DNA from: Escherichia phage vB_EcoM_G8
Strand: one strand, 5' to 3'
DNA length: 64,000 bases
Sequence record: NC_054915.1
In this document: positions 11,317 to 62,503 of the stretch, piece after piece
How the letters are laid out: every line of letters begins with the position of its first letter
How positions within the stretch are numbered: position 1 is the stretch's first letter
Translations under genes and position numbers: made by a program
Notes under the pieces: generated by a model
Seen by the model: the letters and a program-made list of their open reading frames with translations, nothing else
Database searches by the model: none
Told to the model about the DNA's origin: nothing

Positions 11317-11919
11317 TTATAGATTAAATCCTTCAAAATCAAGAGTATAGATAGTGTATGTTGAATACTTTTTATACTCATATCTATTTGCAATTCTAAA
11401 TACACTTCCAGCTGGTATCATTACTTCTTGTTCATCTGAAACTAATTCCATATTACGATAACGATGGCTATCCGGAAACTTAAAGTTTGGATTGTATTCT
11501 TTACAGCGTAGAGCTTTTATAGCATACTCCTGGAAATTGAATACCATAGGAGCTTTGAATTCAAAAATAACCTGTGTGTTATACTCTAAACCGGAAGCAA
11601 AATGTAGAGCTATATTTTTATCATATGAAGCTGATACGACTTTATCAAATGTAATAATATCAATTCCTTGATTTAACACCTGCTTAGTCTCAGCTGGAAC
11701 ACCTCTCCAAAGAGGTTTATCGTTTGGAACCAAACGAGATTTGATTATTTCATTTAACCAAGTATGGTCATCTGGCTTATTAGTAATACAATGAATTAAA
11801 AGTTCAATTTCAGATAAATTAAACCCTTCAGAAAGTAATTCTTCACGAATAGAAGCACGCACCGATGCATCCATTGATTTTATTTTAAAATCTTTTAGTT
11901 GCATTACTGAGTATTTCAT
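11317..11919 (-). CDS. modA: ADP-ribosyltransferase ModA
   Basis: 200-aa ORF (T4 ModA length) paralogous to adjacent 207-aa ORF. Confidence 0.8.
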   Translation of the reverse strand: MKYSVMQLKDFKIKSMDASVRASIREELLSEGFNLSEIELLIHCITNKPDDHTWLNEIIKSRLVPNDKPLWRGVPAETKQVLNQGIDIITFDKVVSASYDKNIALHFASGLEYNTQVIFEFKAPMVFNFQEYAIKALRCKEYNPNFKFPDSHRYRNMELVSDEQEVMIPAGSVFRIANRYEYKKYSTYTIYTLDFEGFNL

Positions 11920-12539
11920 TCAACTACCTCAATATCATACACTTTAAATGTTCCAAATGAATCGTGTAATTTTTCTTTTGAAATAGAAGTTATTCTATAC
12001 TTTCCAATTGGAATCATCCATTCTTGTTCACGCACAATCATCATTAAGTTATCAGTACGCTCTGAATCTAGCCCATCAGTATCTTCATATGTATACTTAA
12101 ACTCAGTATTAGGAGAAGAAAGTATAATATCGCTGATATGGTCAGAATAATTAAAAGCTTTATCAGTTTTTAAGCGAAGTATTATTTTAGTAAAATATTC
12201 AGCGTAAGAAAAAGAACATGCTGTGAGCAAACTAGTAGTAAATGAATCTACTCTATTCGTTGAAAACACTTCTCCAACTTGTAAATCTTTAATAAGTTCT
12301 TCTGTTGATTTTGATATACCACGATATAACTGATAAGGTGATTTAGTTAAATGCTTTTTAATGATTTTATTCAATTGCCGATGAAGAGCTTCATTCTTTT
12401 TAGCTTCCATACATTGCCAAAGAACAGACTGCTCAAAGTCAGTAAATTTTTCACAGACTTTTTTATACATATCATATTGAAAATCAACGCTTTCAGCTTT
12501 TATAGATAACTGTTCAACATCTGCAAGATTAATAATCAT
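11916..12539 (-). CDS. modB: ADP-ribosyltransferase ModB
   Basis: 207-aa ORF (T4 ModB length); GGAGG RBS; tandem with modA. Confidence 0.8.
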   Translation of the reverse strand: MIINLADVEQLSIKAESVDFQYDMYKKVCEKFTDFEQSVLWQCMEAKKNEALHRQLNKIIKKHLTKSPYQLYRGISKSTEELIKDLQVGEVFSTNRVDSFTTSLLTACSFSYAEYFTKIILRLKTDKAFNYSDHISDIILSSPNTEFKYTYEDTDGLDSERTDNLMMIVREQEWMIPIGKYRITSISKEKLHDSFGTFKVYDIEVVE

Positions 12540-18261: not shown

Positions 18262-18888
18262 TTAACCTCTATTCATAAAAGCATTAAAAATTTGGTCATC
18301 AATAGAAACATTTACTTTAGACTGTTTTTCGGATGGTAATTCATATCCACATATTACAATTTTGTGATCAATATCAAAATACACAGAAGCAATATGATTA
18401 ATGCTGTTTTCAGTAAAGTCTAAATCAACATCAATATCTTTTTGACCAAAGCCCAAAGGATAAATAATGCGAGTAATTCGATTATCTTTAACAAAGATTC
18501 CACCGACATACTCTGTACTGCGTTTAAAGTCTACACGCCGACGAAATGAAAAATATTCAGGCTCTTTATGAGCTCGGCTCATAGGGCACAACGAATAACT
18601 AGAATAAGAGATGTCAAATCCTACGCCTTCAATATGAACTAAATTGTCATGATTAAACCAATTATAATCATATGCCAAGTCCATTAGATTGTCATATGTG
18701 AAAGGCACCGGATTAACATCATTGGTCACAAGCATATAATTAGCAACTGCTATAATTTCATTATTTTTAACGAATACAAACCGTGATTGATGCGAATGGC
18801 CTGGACCTGCGTTTTCACGATTAATGATATAACACTGGGCACCTTTATATTTGTACGTGTCTTTACACTTGTGCATTTGATAAAACAT
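18262..18888 (-). CDS. gp61.2-like protein (reported anti-DarT factor AdfA homolog in T-even phages)
   Basis: 208-aa ORF in T4 61.2 position; function assignment from literature recall only. Confidence 0.6.
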   Translation of the reverse strand: MFYQMHKCKDTYKYKGAQCYIINRENAGPGHSHQSRFVFVKNNEIIAVANYMLVTNDVNPVPFTYDNLMDLAYDYNWFNHDNLVHIEGVGFDISYSSYSLCPMSRAHKEPEYFSFRRRVDFKRSTEYVGGIFVKDNRITRIIYPLGFGQKDIDVDLDFTENSINHIASVYFDIDHKIVICGYELPSEKQSKVNVSIDDQIFNAFMNRG

Positions 18889-56682: not shown

Positions 56683-56895
56683 TCATTTTTGCCCTGTATT
56701 TACTTTATGCCGGTGCACGGCCTTAACTTTATCAAGGTATTTTTCAAAATTTCGCAATCTAGTATAGTCTGCCGGAGATTGGTTGAGTGATACTTCTCGA
56801 CGCAAAGCTGAAATGATATTTCCAACTTCCCTACGAATTTCATCTAATTGAAGAACAGTAAGATTGCGAAGTTGCTTTTCAGTTAATTGTAGCAT
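56683..56895 (-). CDS. hypothetical small protein (rI.1 position)
   Basis: 70-aa ORF. Confidence 0.5.
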
Positions 56896-56937
56896 ATATA
56901 CCCCTTTAGTTAGATAAACCTATTTATAACTTTTGCA

Positions 56938-57519
56938 CTAACCGAGCTTTTTAGTTAATTCATTCCAATGTTTTCTACACAAAGAAACATAAATTTCATC
57001 ACCAATACAGATTTGATTACCTTCTTTAACTGGTGTTCCATCTTCCATTAATCGAGCTGTCATAATCGCTTTTTTACCGCAATGACAAACTGCCTTTAGT
57101 TCAATAAGTTTATCTGCAATCGCCAAAAGTTCTTTAGAACCTTCAAACAATTTTCCAGCGAAATCAGTCCTTAATCCATAAGCCATAACAGGAACATTAT
57201 ATGTATCAACAATTCGGCTCAATTGATGCACCTGTTCAGTTTTTAAAAACTGGGCTTCATCTACAAATACGCAATGAATATCTTTTTGTGCTTCAGCCCA
57301 TTTATAGAACTCGAAAATATCCATATCATCTGTAATAATATTCGCTTCCTGTTTAATTCCAATGCGAGAAACAACTTCACAGACAGAATCGCGAGTATCA
57401 ATAGCAGGCTTAAGAACTAATACACTCATTCCACGTTCTTTATAATTATGTGCAGCAGTCAAAAGAGAAGCAGATTTTCCAGCATTCATTGCTGCATAAG
57501 TAAAAATTAAACTCGCCAT
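56938..57519 (-). CDS. tk: thymidine kinase
   Basis: 193-aa ORF; P-loop AAMNAGKS and zinc-ribbon cysteines; T4 Tk length. Confidence 0.95.
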   Translation of the reverse strand: MASLIFTYAAMNAGKSASLLTAAHNYKERGMSVLVLKPAIDTRDSVCEVVSRIGIKQEANIITDDMDIFEFYKWAEAQKDIHCVFVDEAQFLKTEQVHQLSRIVDTYNVPVMAYGLRTDFAGKLFEGSKELLAIADKLIELKAVCHCGKKAIMTARLMEDGTPVKEGNQICIGDEIYVSLCRKHWNELTKKLG

Positions 57520-57520
57520 C

Positions 57521-57709
57521 TTAGTCCTTAGTTAAATTTTCTAAATATGTTTCTAAATCATTTTCAGCTTTATCGATAGATTTTACTAATTCGTAATATG
57601 TTTCGTCATCTCCGTATTCAGAAGATAATTCAAAAGACAAATCCTTTTCTAAACTAATAATTTCACTAACTAAAAATAATATTTCGTTCTTTTGTTCGCG
57701 AGTAATCAT
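57521..57709 (-). CDS. tk.1-like small helical protein
   Basis: 62-aa ORF; paralog of next ORF. Confidence 0.5.
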   Translation of the reverse strand: MITREQKNEILFLVSEIISLEKDLSFELSSEYGDDETYYELVKSIDKAENDLETYLENLTKD

Positions 57710-57891
57710 AAGGAATTTATATAATCAATGAGTTCTTGTTCTTTATTATCGAATTCTTTAGAAAGTTCTTCGTACTCGTTTGCACTAAAAGGACCGCATT
57801 CATTACAAACTTTTTCCAATTCACTATTTTTATCCATAACTTCGTGGATAAGAGAAAAGAGTCTGTCTTTTTGTTCTTTACTTAAACTCAT
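57706..57891 (-). CDS. tk.2-like small helical protein
   Basis: 61-aa ORF. Confidence 0.5.
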   Translation of the reverse strand: MSLSKEQKDRLFSLIHEVMDKNSELEKVCNECGPFSANEYEELSKEFDNKEQELIDYINSL

Positions 57892-58057
57892 ATATTAATT
57901 TCCAGAAGTTTTAAAATAATTCGCTTTTGCTTAAATATTTCCATAGTTAAATGATCAGTATCTTTTTGGCCAATTCCAATGGCAAAACCTTTATTAGCAG
58001 CGAGTTCAATTAAATTATCAAGTTCACGTGACACTTCATATTGTAACTCAGAACTAT

Positions 58058-58270
58058 TCATTTCGGTTTACCTTCTTTAACGAAATCTGGATAAGGATAA
58101 AATCCCGAATAAAATCCTTCACCTTTATGATTGATGCATCCTTTATTAGAACAATAGCACCAATAATCGAAATCACAAGCCATTTCATCGTTGCATAAAG
58201 CAAAAACAACTGGCCATTTACACTTTTCACAGTGGGCATTTTTAAGAATACTAGTTTGGCTCATAACCAT
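58058..58270 (-). CDS. cysteine-rich small protein (putative metal-binding)
   Basis: 70-aa ORF with 9 Cys; preferred over overlapping 58054-58239 frame. Confidence 0.45.
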   Translation of the reverse strand: MVMSQTSILKNAHCEKCKWPVVFALCNDEMACDFDYWCYCSNKGCINHKGEGFYSGFYPYPDFVKEGKPK

Positions 58271-58488
58271 GTCACCTTTAAGCAGTATTCTTCTACATGC
58301 TGTTTACGACCTTTCTTATCAATAAAGGTATATTCAACGAATGTTCCAATGTAGTCTTTATCTACATCATGTGGACTATTAATTGGACATTTAGTACGGC
58401 AAATGCGCTCCCATTGACGAATAATTACTGCCTTATTCTTTGGGTCATATGGATGTGGATAATGTATATTCATAATAATGGTTCCCAA
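58261..58488 (-). CDS. hypothetical small protein
   Basis: 75-aa ORF. Confidence 0.45.
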   Translation of the reverse strand: MGTIIMNIHYPHPYDPKNKAVIIRQWERICRTKCPINSPHDVDKDYIGTFVEYTFIDKKGRKQHVEEYCLKVTWL

Positions 58489-58937
58489 TCAACAATCACA
58501 ATTTCTAATTTAGAGGAATATGTATCTAAAATCCCCTCAATAATATCCCAGTTCCCTTTACCTATGCCTGCACCAATCCTAGGCATATAGATTGTAGGTT
58601 TAATCAGTTTATTTTCACCAAACTCATTTAATTCTAACATACAATTCATTAAAGCGGAATATTCAAAATTTGGTCCTGGTTGAAATTGAGTATAAAGATT
58701 AAAGCAGTAAGCTTTATGAGTCCTAAAGTATTTTTCATAGACTGAATAAGAACCAAGTTTAGTTACATCACCCCATTCAGTCTGTAATTTATCAGCTTCC
58801 AAAATTTTAGGGAAAGCTTTGGTTAATTGACCTGCGACTCCAGCTTTCATCGTATGAAAACAATTGCATCCATGCGCAATATTTTTACCTTCAGTGAAAA
58901 GGGCGACAATATCGCCCTTGATATATTTTACAATCAT
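58470..58937 (-). CDS. macro-domain-like protein (putative ADP-ribose binding/hydrolase)
   Basis: 155-aa ORF; glycine-rich motifs GCNCFHTMKAGVAGQ and IGAGIGKG resembling macro domain loops. Confidence 0.5.
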   Translation of the reverse strand: MIVKYIKGDIVALFTEGKNIAHGCNCFHTMKAGVAGQLTKAFPKILEADKLQTEWGDVTKLGSYSVYEKYFRTHKAYCFNLYTQFQPGPNFEYSALMNCMLELNEFGENKLIKPTIYMPRIGAGIGKGNWDIIEGILDTYSSKLEIVIVDWEPLL

Positions 58938-59275
58938 TTAGTACTCAATCCTCGATTATAAGAATCTACCAAACGGTCAACCATTGAATGACAAGCGGCT
59001 TTATCTTTCTCCTCCGCAACTGAACATTCTAAGGTATTCCACTTTTTAGCATATCGTTTTAATAATGTATCGTTTTTGTATCTGCTTGATTTATCTCTTT
59101 CTCCGTCTTTATATGCATATATTAATTTCTGCGCAAATTCAGCTTGGCATGCTTTATTTTTCCCACAATAATCTGCCGCAGTGCGATTTACATATTCTCT
59201 AATTTCAGTATATGATGTATCTGCTAACGCAGAAAATGAAATTAATCCTATACATAAAACCAAAATTTTAGTCAT
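58934..59275 (-). CDS. secreted protein (signal peptide, 4 Cys)
   Basis: 113-aa ORF. Confidence 0.55.
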   Translation of the reverse strand: MTKILVLCIGLISFSALADTSYTEIREYVNRTAADYCGKNKACQAEFAQKLIYAYKDGERDKSSRYKNDTLLKRYAKKWNTLECSVAEEKDKAACHSMVDRLVDSYNRGLSTK

Positions 59276-59813
59276 TTACTATTTCCAAAAGTTTATTATT
59301 TTTAAGGTAATTAGCCTTTTCTAGGACTTCAGAAGCATATTTAGAACCTGCTTTAACATTCCATCCCGAATTATAAGAGGATATTGCTTTTCTTATATCG
59401 CCCTTATGTATATTTAACCAATAAGAAAGTTCAATGTACGCCCAGGAAGCTGAATTGGACCGTTTATTCAACATTCTTTTTATTTCAGCATCGGTCATAT
59501 TATAACCAAGTTCCTTAACTCTTGCTCGCATAGTAGGCAAATAATTTTGGAACATTCCGTAGGCGTGATGCTTTGGTTTAGATTTTAAATTAACTCCGCC
59601 AGAGCTTTCTTGCCATAAAATAGCAGCCATTATATGACCTAATCCGCTCTTGTGGATATTTTTGTGTGTTTTATATTTTCCATCCTTAGAAAATTGTTCC
59701 CCGAATTGATACGCGTAACGCATGTTATCGAGTTGGACATTACTGAAAGTATGCTCGGAGCTATGTGCCATCATTGAAATGGCCAATAGACCAGCGAGTA
59801 GTGCTTTTCTCAT
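59268..59813 (-). CDS. secreted lytic-transglycosylase-like protein
   Basis: 181-aa ORF; signal peptide; ESSGG...YGMFQ resembling SLT catalytic motif. Confidence 0.5.
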   Translation of the reverse strand: MRKALLAGLLAISMMAHSSEHTFSNVQLDNMRYAYQFGEQFSKDGKYKTHKNIHKSGLGHIMAAILWQESSGGVNLKSKPKHHAYGMFQNYLPTMRARVKELGYNMTDAEIKRMLNKRSNSASWAYIELSYWLNIHKGDIRKAISSYNSGWNVKAGSKYASEVLEKANYLKNNKLLEIVND

Positions 59814-59820
59814 GCTTACC

Positions 59821-60282
59821 TCATTGAGTTTTAATTACTGCTTTAGAAGCCTTTCCTGGTAAACGACGACTGTTGATAATTGCCATCCTGCATTGAAGTG
59901 ACGGGTTTTTGAACTTCTCATTAGGCTTACAAACCGTAAATCCAAGCCAAAGATTTCCATCTGTAATTTCCAAACGCCCAGGACGATATTCAACCCCATC
60001 AATAAAATCCTCGTCAATGTCAGGACGCGGAGGCATACTCAGGAATTCATTAACTTCTAAAACATGGTCTTTTATTTTATGGAATAATTCAAAAACATAT
60101 GTCTCATCAATCTCCCGTTGAATTGCACGATCAAGAAGATGTTGAGAATATTTTAGATGAAACGATGAGACTCCTGCTGCTTTTGATGCCTCACGAATCT
60201 CATTGTTAATTTGACGAAACTCCGACTCAAAGTGACGACGAAGCTTATTTCGACGGATAAAAACTTCTGTATTGATAGTCAT
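59821..60282 (-). CDS. regB: RegB endoribonuclease
   Basis: 153-aa ORF, T4 RegB length; early promoter and GGAG RBS upstream. Confidence 0.88.
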   Translation of the reverse strand: MTINTEVFIRRNKLRRHFESEFRQINNEIREASKAAGVSSFHLKYSQHLLDRAIQREIDETYVFELFHKIKDHVLEVNEFLSMPPRPDIDEDFIDGVEYRPGRLEITDGNLWLGFTVCKPNEKFKNPSLQCRMAIINSRRLPGKASKAVIKTQ

Positions 60283-60309
60283 GTTATTCTCCTCTTAACT
60301 GATAGAAAA

Positions 60310-60339
60310 ATTATACCACAGTCAAGAGGAAAAGTAAAC
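60310..60339 (-). promoter_or_regulatory. T4-type early promoter for regB
   Basis: plus strand attataccacagtcaagaggaaaagtaaac. Confidence 0.65.
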
Positions 60340-60341
60340 AG

Positions 60342-60662
60342 TTATTCTTTAAATCTGATCAATTTATTCATAGACTTTGAAACTTCTGCACGAACCTCAT
60401 GTAAGTTTTTAAGCTGTTCAAGACGCTGTTCATAGTAAGCAATTTCATCTTCTTCGAGACAGTCCTGTGAATCTTCTTTAAGATAGCGTGCATAGTCCTG
60501 GAAAGCTTTACGGACTACTTCCTGGAAGTCATCAAGACTTTGAATTTTCTTAGGAGCGGCAGATACACGACGAGGGGCAGTATAATACTCATAACCAAAC
60601 CCTGCACTTAATTGAGCCATTAGTATTTTTCCTCTGGTTGGAACACAGCACGGCAAGCCCAC
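60342..60662 (-). CDS. hypothetical protein (vs.x series)
   Basis: 106-aa ORF. Confidence 0.5.
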
Positions 60663-60922
60663 ATACTTGCTTCTTTGAGTTTCGTTTTAGCAATAGTTAA
60701 CTGATCGAGGCTTTCGGCGTAATTCTTCGCGAGTTCATCATCTTCACAGCTATCAAATGCTTCCCAGAATTCATCGTATAAAGCGTCAAAGATAAGTCCT
60801 AAACGAACTTCAGCGTCTTTGATAGCATTCACTTTACCGATTTTCTCTTCAGTATGCGGCTTATAACCCTTAATATCTTCAATCATATTTGACTTCCTCA
60901 CCAGTACATAAATCATATTCAA
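60620..60922 (-). CDS. hypothetical protein (vs.x series)
   Basis: 100-aa ORF. Confidence 0.5.
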
Positions 60923-61100
60923 CTAAACGAATAGGTTCATGAATGCCATATCCCTGAACAGAAATTTCTGTCGTAGGATAAATTCCATCAATATCACCCA
61001 TATTCCACGCTTCGTTAAATTGCTGTTCGCCTGAATTACTAAACCATTCGGCGAAAGCATTTAGCACATCTTCAGAACCTTCAATAATTATCTTTGCCAT
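60879..61100 (-). CDS. hypothetical small acidic protein
   Basis: 73-aa ORF. Confidence 0.5.
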   Translation of the reverse strand: MAKIIIEGSEDVLNAFAEWFSNSGEQQFNEAWNMGDIDGIYPTTEISVQGYGIHEPIRLVEYDLCTGEEVKYD

Positions 61101-61462
61101 TACAAACTCTCGGTAAAGGTACGAGCGATAACGTCGCGCTGCTGTTCCGGAGTCAGAGAGTTAAAGCGAACTGCATAACCGGATACACGGATGGTCAGCT
61201 GCGGATATTTTTCCGGATGCTTAACTGCATCTTCCAGAGTTTCACGACGCAGAACGTTAACGTTCAGGTGTTGACCACCTTCAATTTTAACTGTAGGCTG
61301 TTGCTCAATTTCAATTTCACGGGCATGCAAACCATAGAAAATTTCTGGGTCTACAAAAGAGTCCTCTTTAAAGGTTTTAGAGACAATAATTCGTGCTTGA
61401 ATACCATCTTCAAAATAAATAGTACCTTTATGTGTGCCTTCAAGAATTTGATATGCTTTCAT
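61100..61462 (-). CDS. autonomous glycyl radical cofactor (GrcA/YfiD-like; T4 Y06I-type)
   Basis: 120-aa ORF; C-terminal 60 aa ...[59 protein letters not shown] matches remembered E. coli GrcA and PFL glycyl-radical domain. Confidence 0.9.
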
Positions 61463-61469
61463 ATAAACC

Positions 61470-61850
61470 TCAATTAGAAAATAAATTTATCCAAGATTGT
61501 TCTTTAATTAAAAATGGCTCAGAATCATATGCCATTAAACTCTGTGTGATTAGTCCTTTAAAAGGCCCATCAATAAATTCCATGGTAAAATATGGAATTT
61601 TATTCATTAGCCGTGCATTAGGAGCAGTACATAAAACTCTGCATCCTTTGAATACACCTTTTTGTAATTTGTATTGCTTGGGATAAAATTCGCTCAAAAT
61701 GTTATTATTTGCTAAAATTTCAAAATGATTCACCAATTTATTTTTAATAGTTTTTGGCGAAAAATAAAGATATTCGAAAAGCTGAGTGTCTGTCATCATT
61801 GCATTCCGATTACGAAAAACTGTGGACGAGTAATACCACCAATACAACAT
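61470..61850 (-). CDS. hypothetical protein
   Basis: 126-aa ORF. Confidence 0.5.
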
Positions 61851-62338
61851 TTAATATTACAGCAGCAGCAGTGTACAGTGTCAATATGGACACTATAAAT
61901 CTTATCCATATCAGGAGATTTGACAGGCTCATCAATTATATACAAAATTCGCGAAAGCGATAAACCTCTGAACTTGCTTCCTTTATTACCAATAAAACTG
62001 CGTACAGAATCAGTAAATAAACGAAAACGTATATCATCATTAGAATAACGCGAAAATTCCTTTTTAATGTTATTTGCAGAAATTTTAGCGTAAGCTGAAG
62101 TATTAGAAAGAACAATAACTGTTCCGCCATCATACAACCAATTAGCAGCAAAGTTAGTCACAGCAATTGATTTACCGGATTGACGTCCACCGTCTAGTCG
62201 AAGTGTGCAATACTGTTTAAGTAAGTCTTCAAATGGCGGGATATATTCGTTTTTACAAATTTCTTCTACTCTAGCATCAGAATGGTGTGTAAAAGCATTC
62301 ATCAGGGATAGATAAGGACCAGTTAAAAATGTTCTCAT
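61796..62338 (-). CDS. hypothetical protein with P-loop-like GGRQSGKS and C-terminal CCCC cluster
   Basis: 180-aa ORF. Confidence 0.5.
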   Translation of the reverse strand: MRTFLTGPYLSLMNAFTHHSDARVEEICKNEYIPPFEDLLKQYCTLRLDGGRQSGKSIAVTNFAANWLYDGGTVIVLSNTSAYAKISANNIKKEFSRYSNDDIRFRLFTDSVRSFIGNKGSKFRGLSLSRILYIIDEPVKSPDMDKIYSVHIDTVHCCCCNIKCCIGGITRPQFFVIGMQ

Positions 62339-62503
62339 TTCTTCTCTCTAAATTTGGGCCATTCCGTGGCGCATGAATTGTCCATTTCTGTATTTACCCA
62401 TTACCGCACTTGGGCTCGACCTTATTACAGGTTGGCGGGAATCCCTCATAGAATCATGAGGTCCAGGTTGTTCCCATTTTATTTGAATGTAAATAGGTCT
62501 GAG
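62339..62503 (-). other. GC-rich structured intergenic region (nested stem: GGGAA...CCUCAU-loop-AUGAGG...UUCCC)
   Basis: read directly; no ORF on minus strand; composition contrasts with AT-rich flanks. Confidence 0.5.

Follow-up and report, generated by a model that had tools for sequence, protein, structure and literature searches.

Phage T4 lacking both adfA and adfN was found by Johannesman et al. to be still resistant to DarTG2, from which a further anti-DarTG2 factor was predicted (PMC11825919). In the HIDEN-SEQ preprint of November 2025, tk.4 was the single transposon-sequencing match on a DarTG2 host; insertions in tk.4 were depleted specifically on that host, and a clean tk.4 deletion rendered T4 sensitive to DarTG2 (bioRxiv 10.1101/2025.11.20.689424). 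The authors noted the structural similarity of the product to Mycobacterium tuberculosis (Mtb) DarG and renamed the gene adfM, for anti-DarT factor Macrodomain, and went no further than “seems likely” on the enzymatic removal of ADP-ribose from DNA (bioRxiv 10.1101/2025.11.20.689424). Assignment to the macro domains dates from a 2006 comparison of T4-like genomes, in which the orthologues of tk.4 gave a match to the A1pp (macro) domain (PMC1524935). The RefSeq label for tk.4 of T4 is “phosphatase; contains A1pp phosphatase motif”, and further GenBank labels include “macro domain containing protein”, “high-affinity ADP-ribose binding module protein” and “Poa1p-like”.

Gp104 of phage PhiKZ was likewise, and independently, named AdfM and removes DarT2-made ADP-ribose from DNA in vitro (Cell Rep 2026, PMC13309987). 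Among relatives encoded by cells, SCO6735, in which Gln85 takes the place of the catalytic Lys, is quicker than DarG or TARG1 at cleaving the thymidine-ADP-ribose that DarT forms on DNA, and it rescues cells from the toxin; its Q85A variant is inactive and its N27S variant nearly so (PMC9411070). The mechanism proposed for SCO6735 is one in which Gln positions the distal ribose and a water held by the protein backbone acts (PMC9411070). TARG1 also takes thymidine-linked ADP-ribose off DNA (PMC8501950).

The gene considered here is the tk.4 orthologue carried on a 64,000-nucleotide stretch of Escherichia phage vB_EcoM_G8 (NC_054915.1), referred to as the window. The gene, its macro assignment and, for T4, its anti-DarTG2 role have already been described; the additions of the present analysis are modest and comprise a probable Gln-type active site, the use of one name for two unrelated lineages, and a loop allele.

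Identity and fold of the tk.4 product

The gene and its two flanking genes are arranged as follows.

58470 to 58937, minus strand: tk.4 (adfM), encoding a stand-alone macro domain of 155 aa
58934 to 59275, minus strand: vs (valyl-tRNA synthetase modifier), the upstream gene, whose stop codon overlaps the tk.4 start
58261 to 58473, minus strand: tk.3, the downstream gene, 70 aa (Pfam DUF7202, E = 2e-38), whose start codon overlaps the tk.4 stop

The ORF listing of the window gives tk.4 an ATG start. Its product is equal in length to T4 Tk.4, shares 152 of 155 residues with it (98% identity) and matched PHROG 335 with E = 7.8e-65. This high identity, together with the position of the gene between vs and tk.3, places the product in the T4 Tk.4/AdfM orthologous group. 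The surrounding 2.8 kb matched 664 phage records, with at least 98% identity to many Tequatrovirus (T4-like) genomes.

A search with the product revealed 168 homologues, and the family profile and all conservation figures given below derive from an alignment of 110 of them. Pfam Macro (PF01661) exceeded its gathering cut-off of 22 bits with a score of 25 (E = 1.9e-5), with residues 22-132 aligned to profile positions 2-113 of 118. Searching the sequences of PDB entries with the single protein returned BT1257 (4e-8), Poa1p, TARG1/OARD1, SCO6735 and the DarG macrodomains, and the 110-homologue profile strengthened these matches to 8e-20 for BT1257, 1.5e-16 for TARG1, 1e-15 for SCO6735, 3e-14 for Poa1p and 7e-14 for Mtb DarG. 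A single-sequence AlphaFold model was unusable (pLDDT 38), and an AF2 model based on the multiple alignment was used instead (pLDDT 96.3, pTM 0.91). This model has the three-layer alpha/beta/alpha macro fold, and Foldseek comparison with the PDB placed TARG1 (E = 2.3e-10), Poa1p (1.6e-9), BT1257 and DarG at the top with TM-scores of 0.7-0.8, every top structural match being a macro domain. The nearest relatives by both structure and sequence (TARG1, DarG, SCO6735 and Poa1p) are members of the ALC1-like class. The product of 58470-58937 is thus an orthologue of T4 Tk.4 with a macro fold of the ALC1-like class.

An earlier note on this DNA had read the 155-aa ORF as resembling a macro domain from its glycine-rich loops, and had named a structure prediction without a macro fold as grounds for abandoning that reading. 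Both loops are present, at residues 22-36 and 119-130; the resemblance is borne out by the Pfam score, the confident model and its structural matches, and the comparison, now run, yielded the macro fold. That the product binds ADP-ribose is predicted from the alignment of these loops with those of ADP-ribose-bound structures.

Active site in comparison with characterised macrodomains

Three segments of the protein bear on its chemistry.

58830 to 58874, minus strand: substrate-binding loop, residues 22-36 (HGCNCFHTMKAGVAG), with H22, the conserved Asn25 and the G-x-G motif
58686 to 58694, minus strand: Y82-T83-Q84, with Gln84 at the position of the catalytic Lys
58548 to 58583, minus strand: phosphate-binding loop, residues 119-130 (PRIGAGIGKGNW)

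In the substrate-binding loop, H22, G23, C24, N25 and C26 are nearly invariant among the 110 homologues, and G33 and A35 are invariant; the G-x-G motif of this allele reads K31-A32-G33. N25 aligns with Asn27 of SCO6735 and Asn23 of PhiKZ gp104, and mutation of either the former (PMC9411070) or the latter (PMC13309987) lowers activity. In the phosphate-binding loop, whose aligned counterpart in SCO6735 and BT1257 reads PRIGCGLAGG(T/K)W, P119, I121 and G124 are invariant and G122, G128 and W130 nearly invariant. Y82 and Q84 were found in 110 of 110 homologues. Gln84 fell, in every alignment, on the catalytic Lys of TARG1 (K84, in “ITK”), DarG (K80) and PhiKZ gp104 (in “PTK”), and it also aligns with the “GQ” of SCO6735 and BT1257.

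The pattern of Gln plus a conserved Asn at the catalytic position is common to Tk.4 and the SCO6735/BT1257 proteins (PDB 5E3B, 2FG1 and 2AFC), and Tk.4 retains the SCO6735-equivalent His22, Asn25, Gln84, Gly122 and Gly124. The likeness has limits. Identity to SCO6735 and BT1257 is only 21-29%, and the extended mobile loop after the Gln that defines these two proteins, ∼5 residues longer than in DarG or TARG1, is 4-6 residues shorter in the Tk.4 family. The DNA-contacting Lys34 and Lys89 of SCO6735 have no equivalents in Tk.4, and SCO6735 and BT1257 are chromosomal, whereas Tk.4 is phage-encoded. The Lys84/Asp125 catalytic dyad of human TARG1 is replaced in Tk.4 by Gln84 and Gly126, on which Asp125 falls. 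In yeast Poa1p, the position of Gln84 is occupied by Ser.

Judged from these alignments, T4 AdfM would belong with the Gln-type (SCO6735-like) active sites and not with the Lys-type DarG branch. This assignment bears on the design of catalytic mutants, for which Q84A or N25A would be the choice in place of a lysine mutant.

The PADLOC and NCBIfam DarG models were the sole matches to the protein in their libraries (1.7e-7 and 1.7e-5, respectively). Membership of the DarG antitoxins (NCBIfam NF048014) was nevertheless rejected: the score of 24.3 bits fell far short of the equivalog cut-off (250), and the match covered model positions 2-146 of 338 only; the C-terminal DarT-binding domain is absent, as Tk.4 stops at residue 155; the catalytic Lys80 aligns with the invariant Gln84; and there is no adjacent darT, the neighbours of tk.4 being vs and tk.3. 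The phosphate loop also differs, reading PPLGxGNGGL in DarG (M. tuberculosis 5M3I, T. aquaticus 5M31/5M3E and T. africanus 7OMU) and PRIGAGI in Tk.4.

Two distant homologues deposited as bacterial MAG proteins (Bacilli, Culicoidibacterales; L014 1927-2397 and L015 5001-5480) were inspected for a nearby darT, and none was present near either; both lie on T4-like phage contigs. These contigs carry Rnl1, PNKP, a Dda-like helicase, a T4 spanin and dCMP deaminase, and are probably phage contigs that were binned into the MAGs, so that the bacterial labels of these two homologues were not taken as a sign of a toxin-antitoxin origin.

PhiKZ gp104 and Tk.4 are both stand-alone phage macrodomains that counter DarTG2, and the conserved Asn is common to them. 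Identity between the two is only ∼17% (hhalign probability 96.6%), gp104 is of the Lys type and lies much nearer DarG (E = 9e-25 to Mtb DarG), and gp104 is imported into the phage nucleus (PMC13309987). The active-site type, the closeness to DarG and the low identity of gp104 imply that AdfM of T4 and AdfM of PhiKZ come from distinct lineages within the macro superfamily. The name AdfM consequently now covers two unrelated lineages of macrodomain, that of T4 Tk.4 and that of PhiKZ gp104.

Probable removal of DarT2-made ADP-ribose and competing explanations

The earlier note had suggested that a phage macro domain could reverse host defences based on ADP-ribosylation, and had named hosts expressing DarTG as the test. 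For the 98% identical T4 orthologue, this suggestion is supported by the HIDEN-SEQ match and by the sensitivity of the knockout, so that the test named is in effect already in print. With good, though not complete, confidence, the product is considered to be the T4 Tk.4 (AdfM) orthologue, an ALC1-like macro domain that most likely hydrolyses thymidine-ADP-ribose on phage DNA by Gln-type chemistry. In such a scheme, host DarT2 would place ADP-ribose on thymidines of single-stranded phage DNA and so block replication. Tk.4/AdfM, with its two glycine-rich loops on either side of the bound ADP-ribose, would cleave the thymidine-ribose bond, restoring the DNA, and would in effect be a phage-borne orphan antitoxin. 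By analogy with SCO6735, Gln84, held by Asn25, would position the distal ribose for a reaction mediated by water. Both the enzymatic removal of ADP-ribose from DNA by Tk.4 and the Gln/water mechanism are inferred from these characterised relatives.

An alternative, regarded as unlikely, is that Tk.4 counters DarT2 chiefly by binding and inhibiting it, or by masking the product of the toxin, and not by hydrolysing ADP-ribosylated DNA. The catalytically dead variants SCO6735 Q85A, DarG K80A and TARG1 K84A all inhibit DarT in vitro, and SCO6735, the Gln-type relative, is the strongest inhibitor (PMC9411070). Against this, Tk.4 is without the C-terminal DarT-binding domain of DarG (155 aa compared with a 338-position model), and Asn25, Gln84, Gly122 and Gly124 are strictly conserved across 110 diverse homologues, which points to selection for catalysis. 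Binding of DarT2 is plausible as a secondary activity of Tk.4.

Still less probable is that the main substrate is a small ADP-ribose derivative, such as ADP-ribose-1''-phosphate, O-acetyl-ADP-ribose or an immune signalling nucleotide, in place of macromolecular ADP-ribosylation. A small-molecule substrate is the historical annotation and also what Iyer et al. predicted in general for the Macro domains of phages. The T4 phenotype, however, is specific to DarTG2, a DNA-modifying system, and the “A1pp phosphatase” annotation stems from the name of the domain and not from an assay. To our knowledge, T4 RNA repair yields no Appr1p, which also counts against a small-molecule substrate.

Three other genes in the window are relevant to the remaining explanation or to the DarT response.

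11317 to 11919, minus strand: ORF of 200 aa, presumably modA given the lengths of the T4 proteins (PHROG 832)
11916 to 12539, minus strand: ORF of 207 aa, presumably modB on the same grounds (PHROG 832); the pair spans 11317 to 12539
18265 to 18888, minus strand: orthologue of T4 gene 61.2, which we take to be adfA (tblastn, 98% identity over 208 aa)

Matches of the first two ORFs to PHROG 832, “RNA polymerase ADP-ribosylase”, were obtained at 1.6e-33 and 2.6e-41, respectively, which agrees with the earlier note's placing of ADP-ribosyltransferase genes at 11317-12539; a Pfam search of the two ORFs gave no match. The further proposal of that note, that the macro domain tunes the phage's own modifications, found no support: that Tk.4 erases or tunes ADP-ribosylation of host proteins by Alt, ModA and ModB (or RNAylation by ModB) merits hardly any credence, because the presence of tk.4 and modA/modB in one genome is uninformative when all Tequatroviruses have both, 46 kb separates the genes, neither a tool result nor a paper connects tk.4 with ModA/ModB, depletion of tk.4 insertions is specific to the DarTG2 host, and the characterised ALC1-like relatives, so far as we know, act on Glu/Asp- or thymidine-linked ADP-ribose and not on the Arg-linked kind that Alt and Mod produce. 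In its favour, at least one macrodomain, MavL, is arginine-specific (PMC10951314).

AdfA is an anti-DarT factor of T4-like phages (PMC11825919, PMC13309987), and the 61.2 orthologue at 18265-18888 gives the window a second such factor. A role of Tk.4 against the mRNA ADP-ribosyltransferase CmdTAC was also considered and is unlikely, because CmdTAC is reported to be a robust defence against T-even phages (PMC11618068), although these carry tk.4.

Loop allele and gene neighbourhood

Comparison of tk.4 with its T4 counterpart revealed 17 nucleotide differences in 468, over half of which are clustered.

58833 to 58851, minus strand: 19-nt patch holding 9 of the 17 differences from T4 tk.4 (tk.4 nt 87-105, codons 29-35)

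At the protein level the patch accounts for G31K and S32A, which convert M-G-S-G of T4 to M-K-A-G; it also holds four synonymous changes. The differences from the T4 protein are A15T, G31K and S32A, the last two lying in the substrate-binding loop, where Gly31 is the first glycine of a usually conserved M-G-x-G motif and is Lys here. T4 laboratory sublines vary at Ser36Gly in the same segment of tk.4 (PMC8573959).

Haplotypes were counted with two megablast queries of 40 nt, each with the variant codons at its centre. At least 43 phage records had the K-A nucleotide haplotype (RB51, RB68 and wV7 among them) and at least 167 had the T4 haplotype, that of T2 among them; the K31/A32 protein allele is also that of T6. 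A scan of IMG/VR for tk.4 relatives gave 10 loci, too few for allele frequencies. The clustering looks like a short recombination patch rather than point mutation, and loop alleles appear to be exchanged among T-even phages in this form.

Residue 31 is K, A or F in several distant members of the family, so G31K is probably tolerated. Lys31 would be adjacent to the site that corresponds to Lys34 of SCO6735, a residue in contact with DNA. The T4 allele examined against DarTG2 was G31/S32, and the K31/A32 allele is presumed to work like it. A common natural allele nonetheless changes a conserved G-x-G motif, which matters when the T4 (G31/S32) result is extended to T6-like phages. A bolder reading, which we offer tentatively and hold to be rather improbable as a whole, is that the MGSG and MKAG loop alleles differ in substrate range or in the DarT2 variants that they counter, as a small arms-race cassette, and also that the chemistry is of the Gln/water kind and not the lysine-based DarG reaction that the preprint presupposes in comparing the protein with DarG.

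The order tk, tk.1, tk.2, two small ORFs, tk.3, tk.4, vs, vs.1, regB is the same as in phage T6; T4 has this order without the two small ORFs. Pfam confirmed RegB, the SLT domain of Vs.1 and DUF7202 (Tk.3) among the neighbours, and the Tk.3 product has no differences from that of T4. The vs stop and the tk.4 ATG share ATGA at 58934-58937, and the tk.4 TGA and the tk.3 ATG share ATGA at 58470-58473. Overlaps at both ends of tk.4 fit a translationally coupled gene block, and translation of tk.4 may thus be coupled to that of vs and tk.3 within the minus-strand block.

A promoter and terminator scan of 56800-62500 gave no excess over shuffled sequence, with 21 promoter-like sites compared with 22.8 expected. 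The best minus-strand sigma-70-like match, at 60338-60310 (TTTACT, 17-nt spacer, TG, TATAAT), is just upstream of regB and, in a scan not above chance overall, could drive a regB/vs.1/vs/tk.4 block. Codons 7-13 of tk.4 contain a GC-rich inverted repeat (58899-58919) whose stem is 8 bp long (AAGGGCGA...TCGCCCTT); it was flagged as terminator-like on the plus strand, and such sites were region-wide no commoner than in shuffled sequence.

The two small minus-strand genes between tk.2 and tk.3 (57888-58061 and 58058-58270) are present in T6 and absent from T4. One is RB32ORF110c-like (57 aa, phrog_3452), and the other is RB32ORF111c-like (70 aa, Cys-rich, Pfam PF23895 “Phage zinc binding domain”). 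At 113 aa, Vs is shorter than its T4 counterpart (115 aa): two residues are missing where the predicted signal peptide ends (SFSASASADT in T4, SFSALADT here). It also carries a C-terminal R-to-K change.
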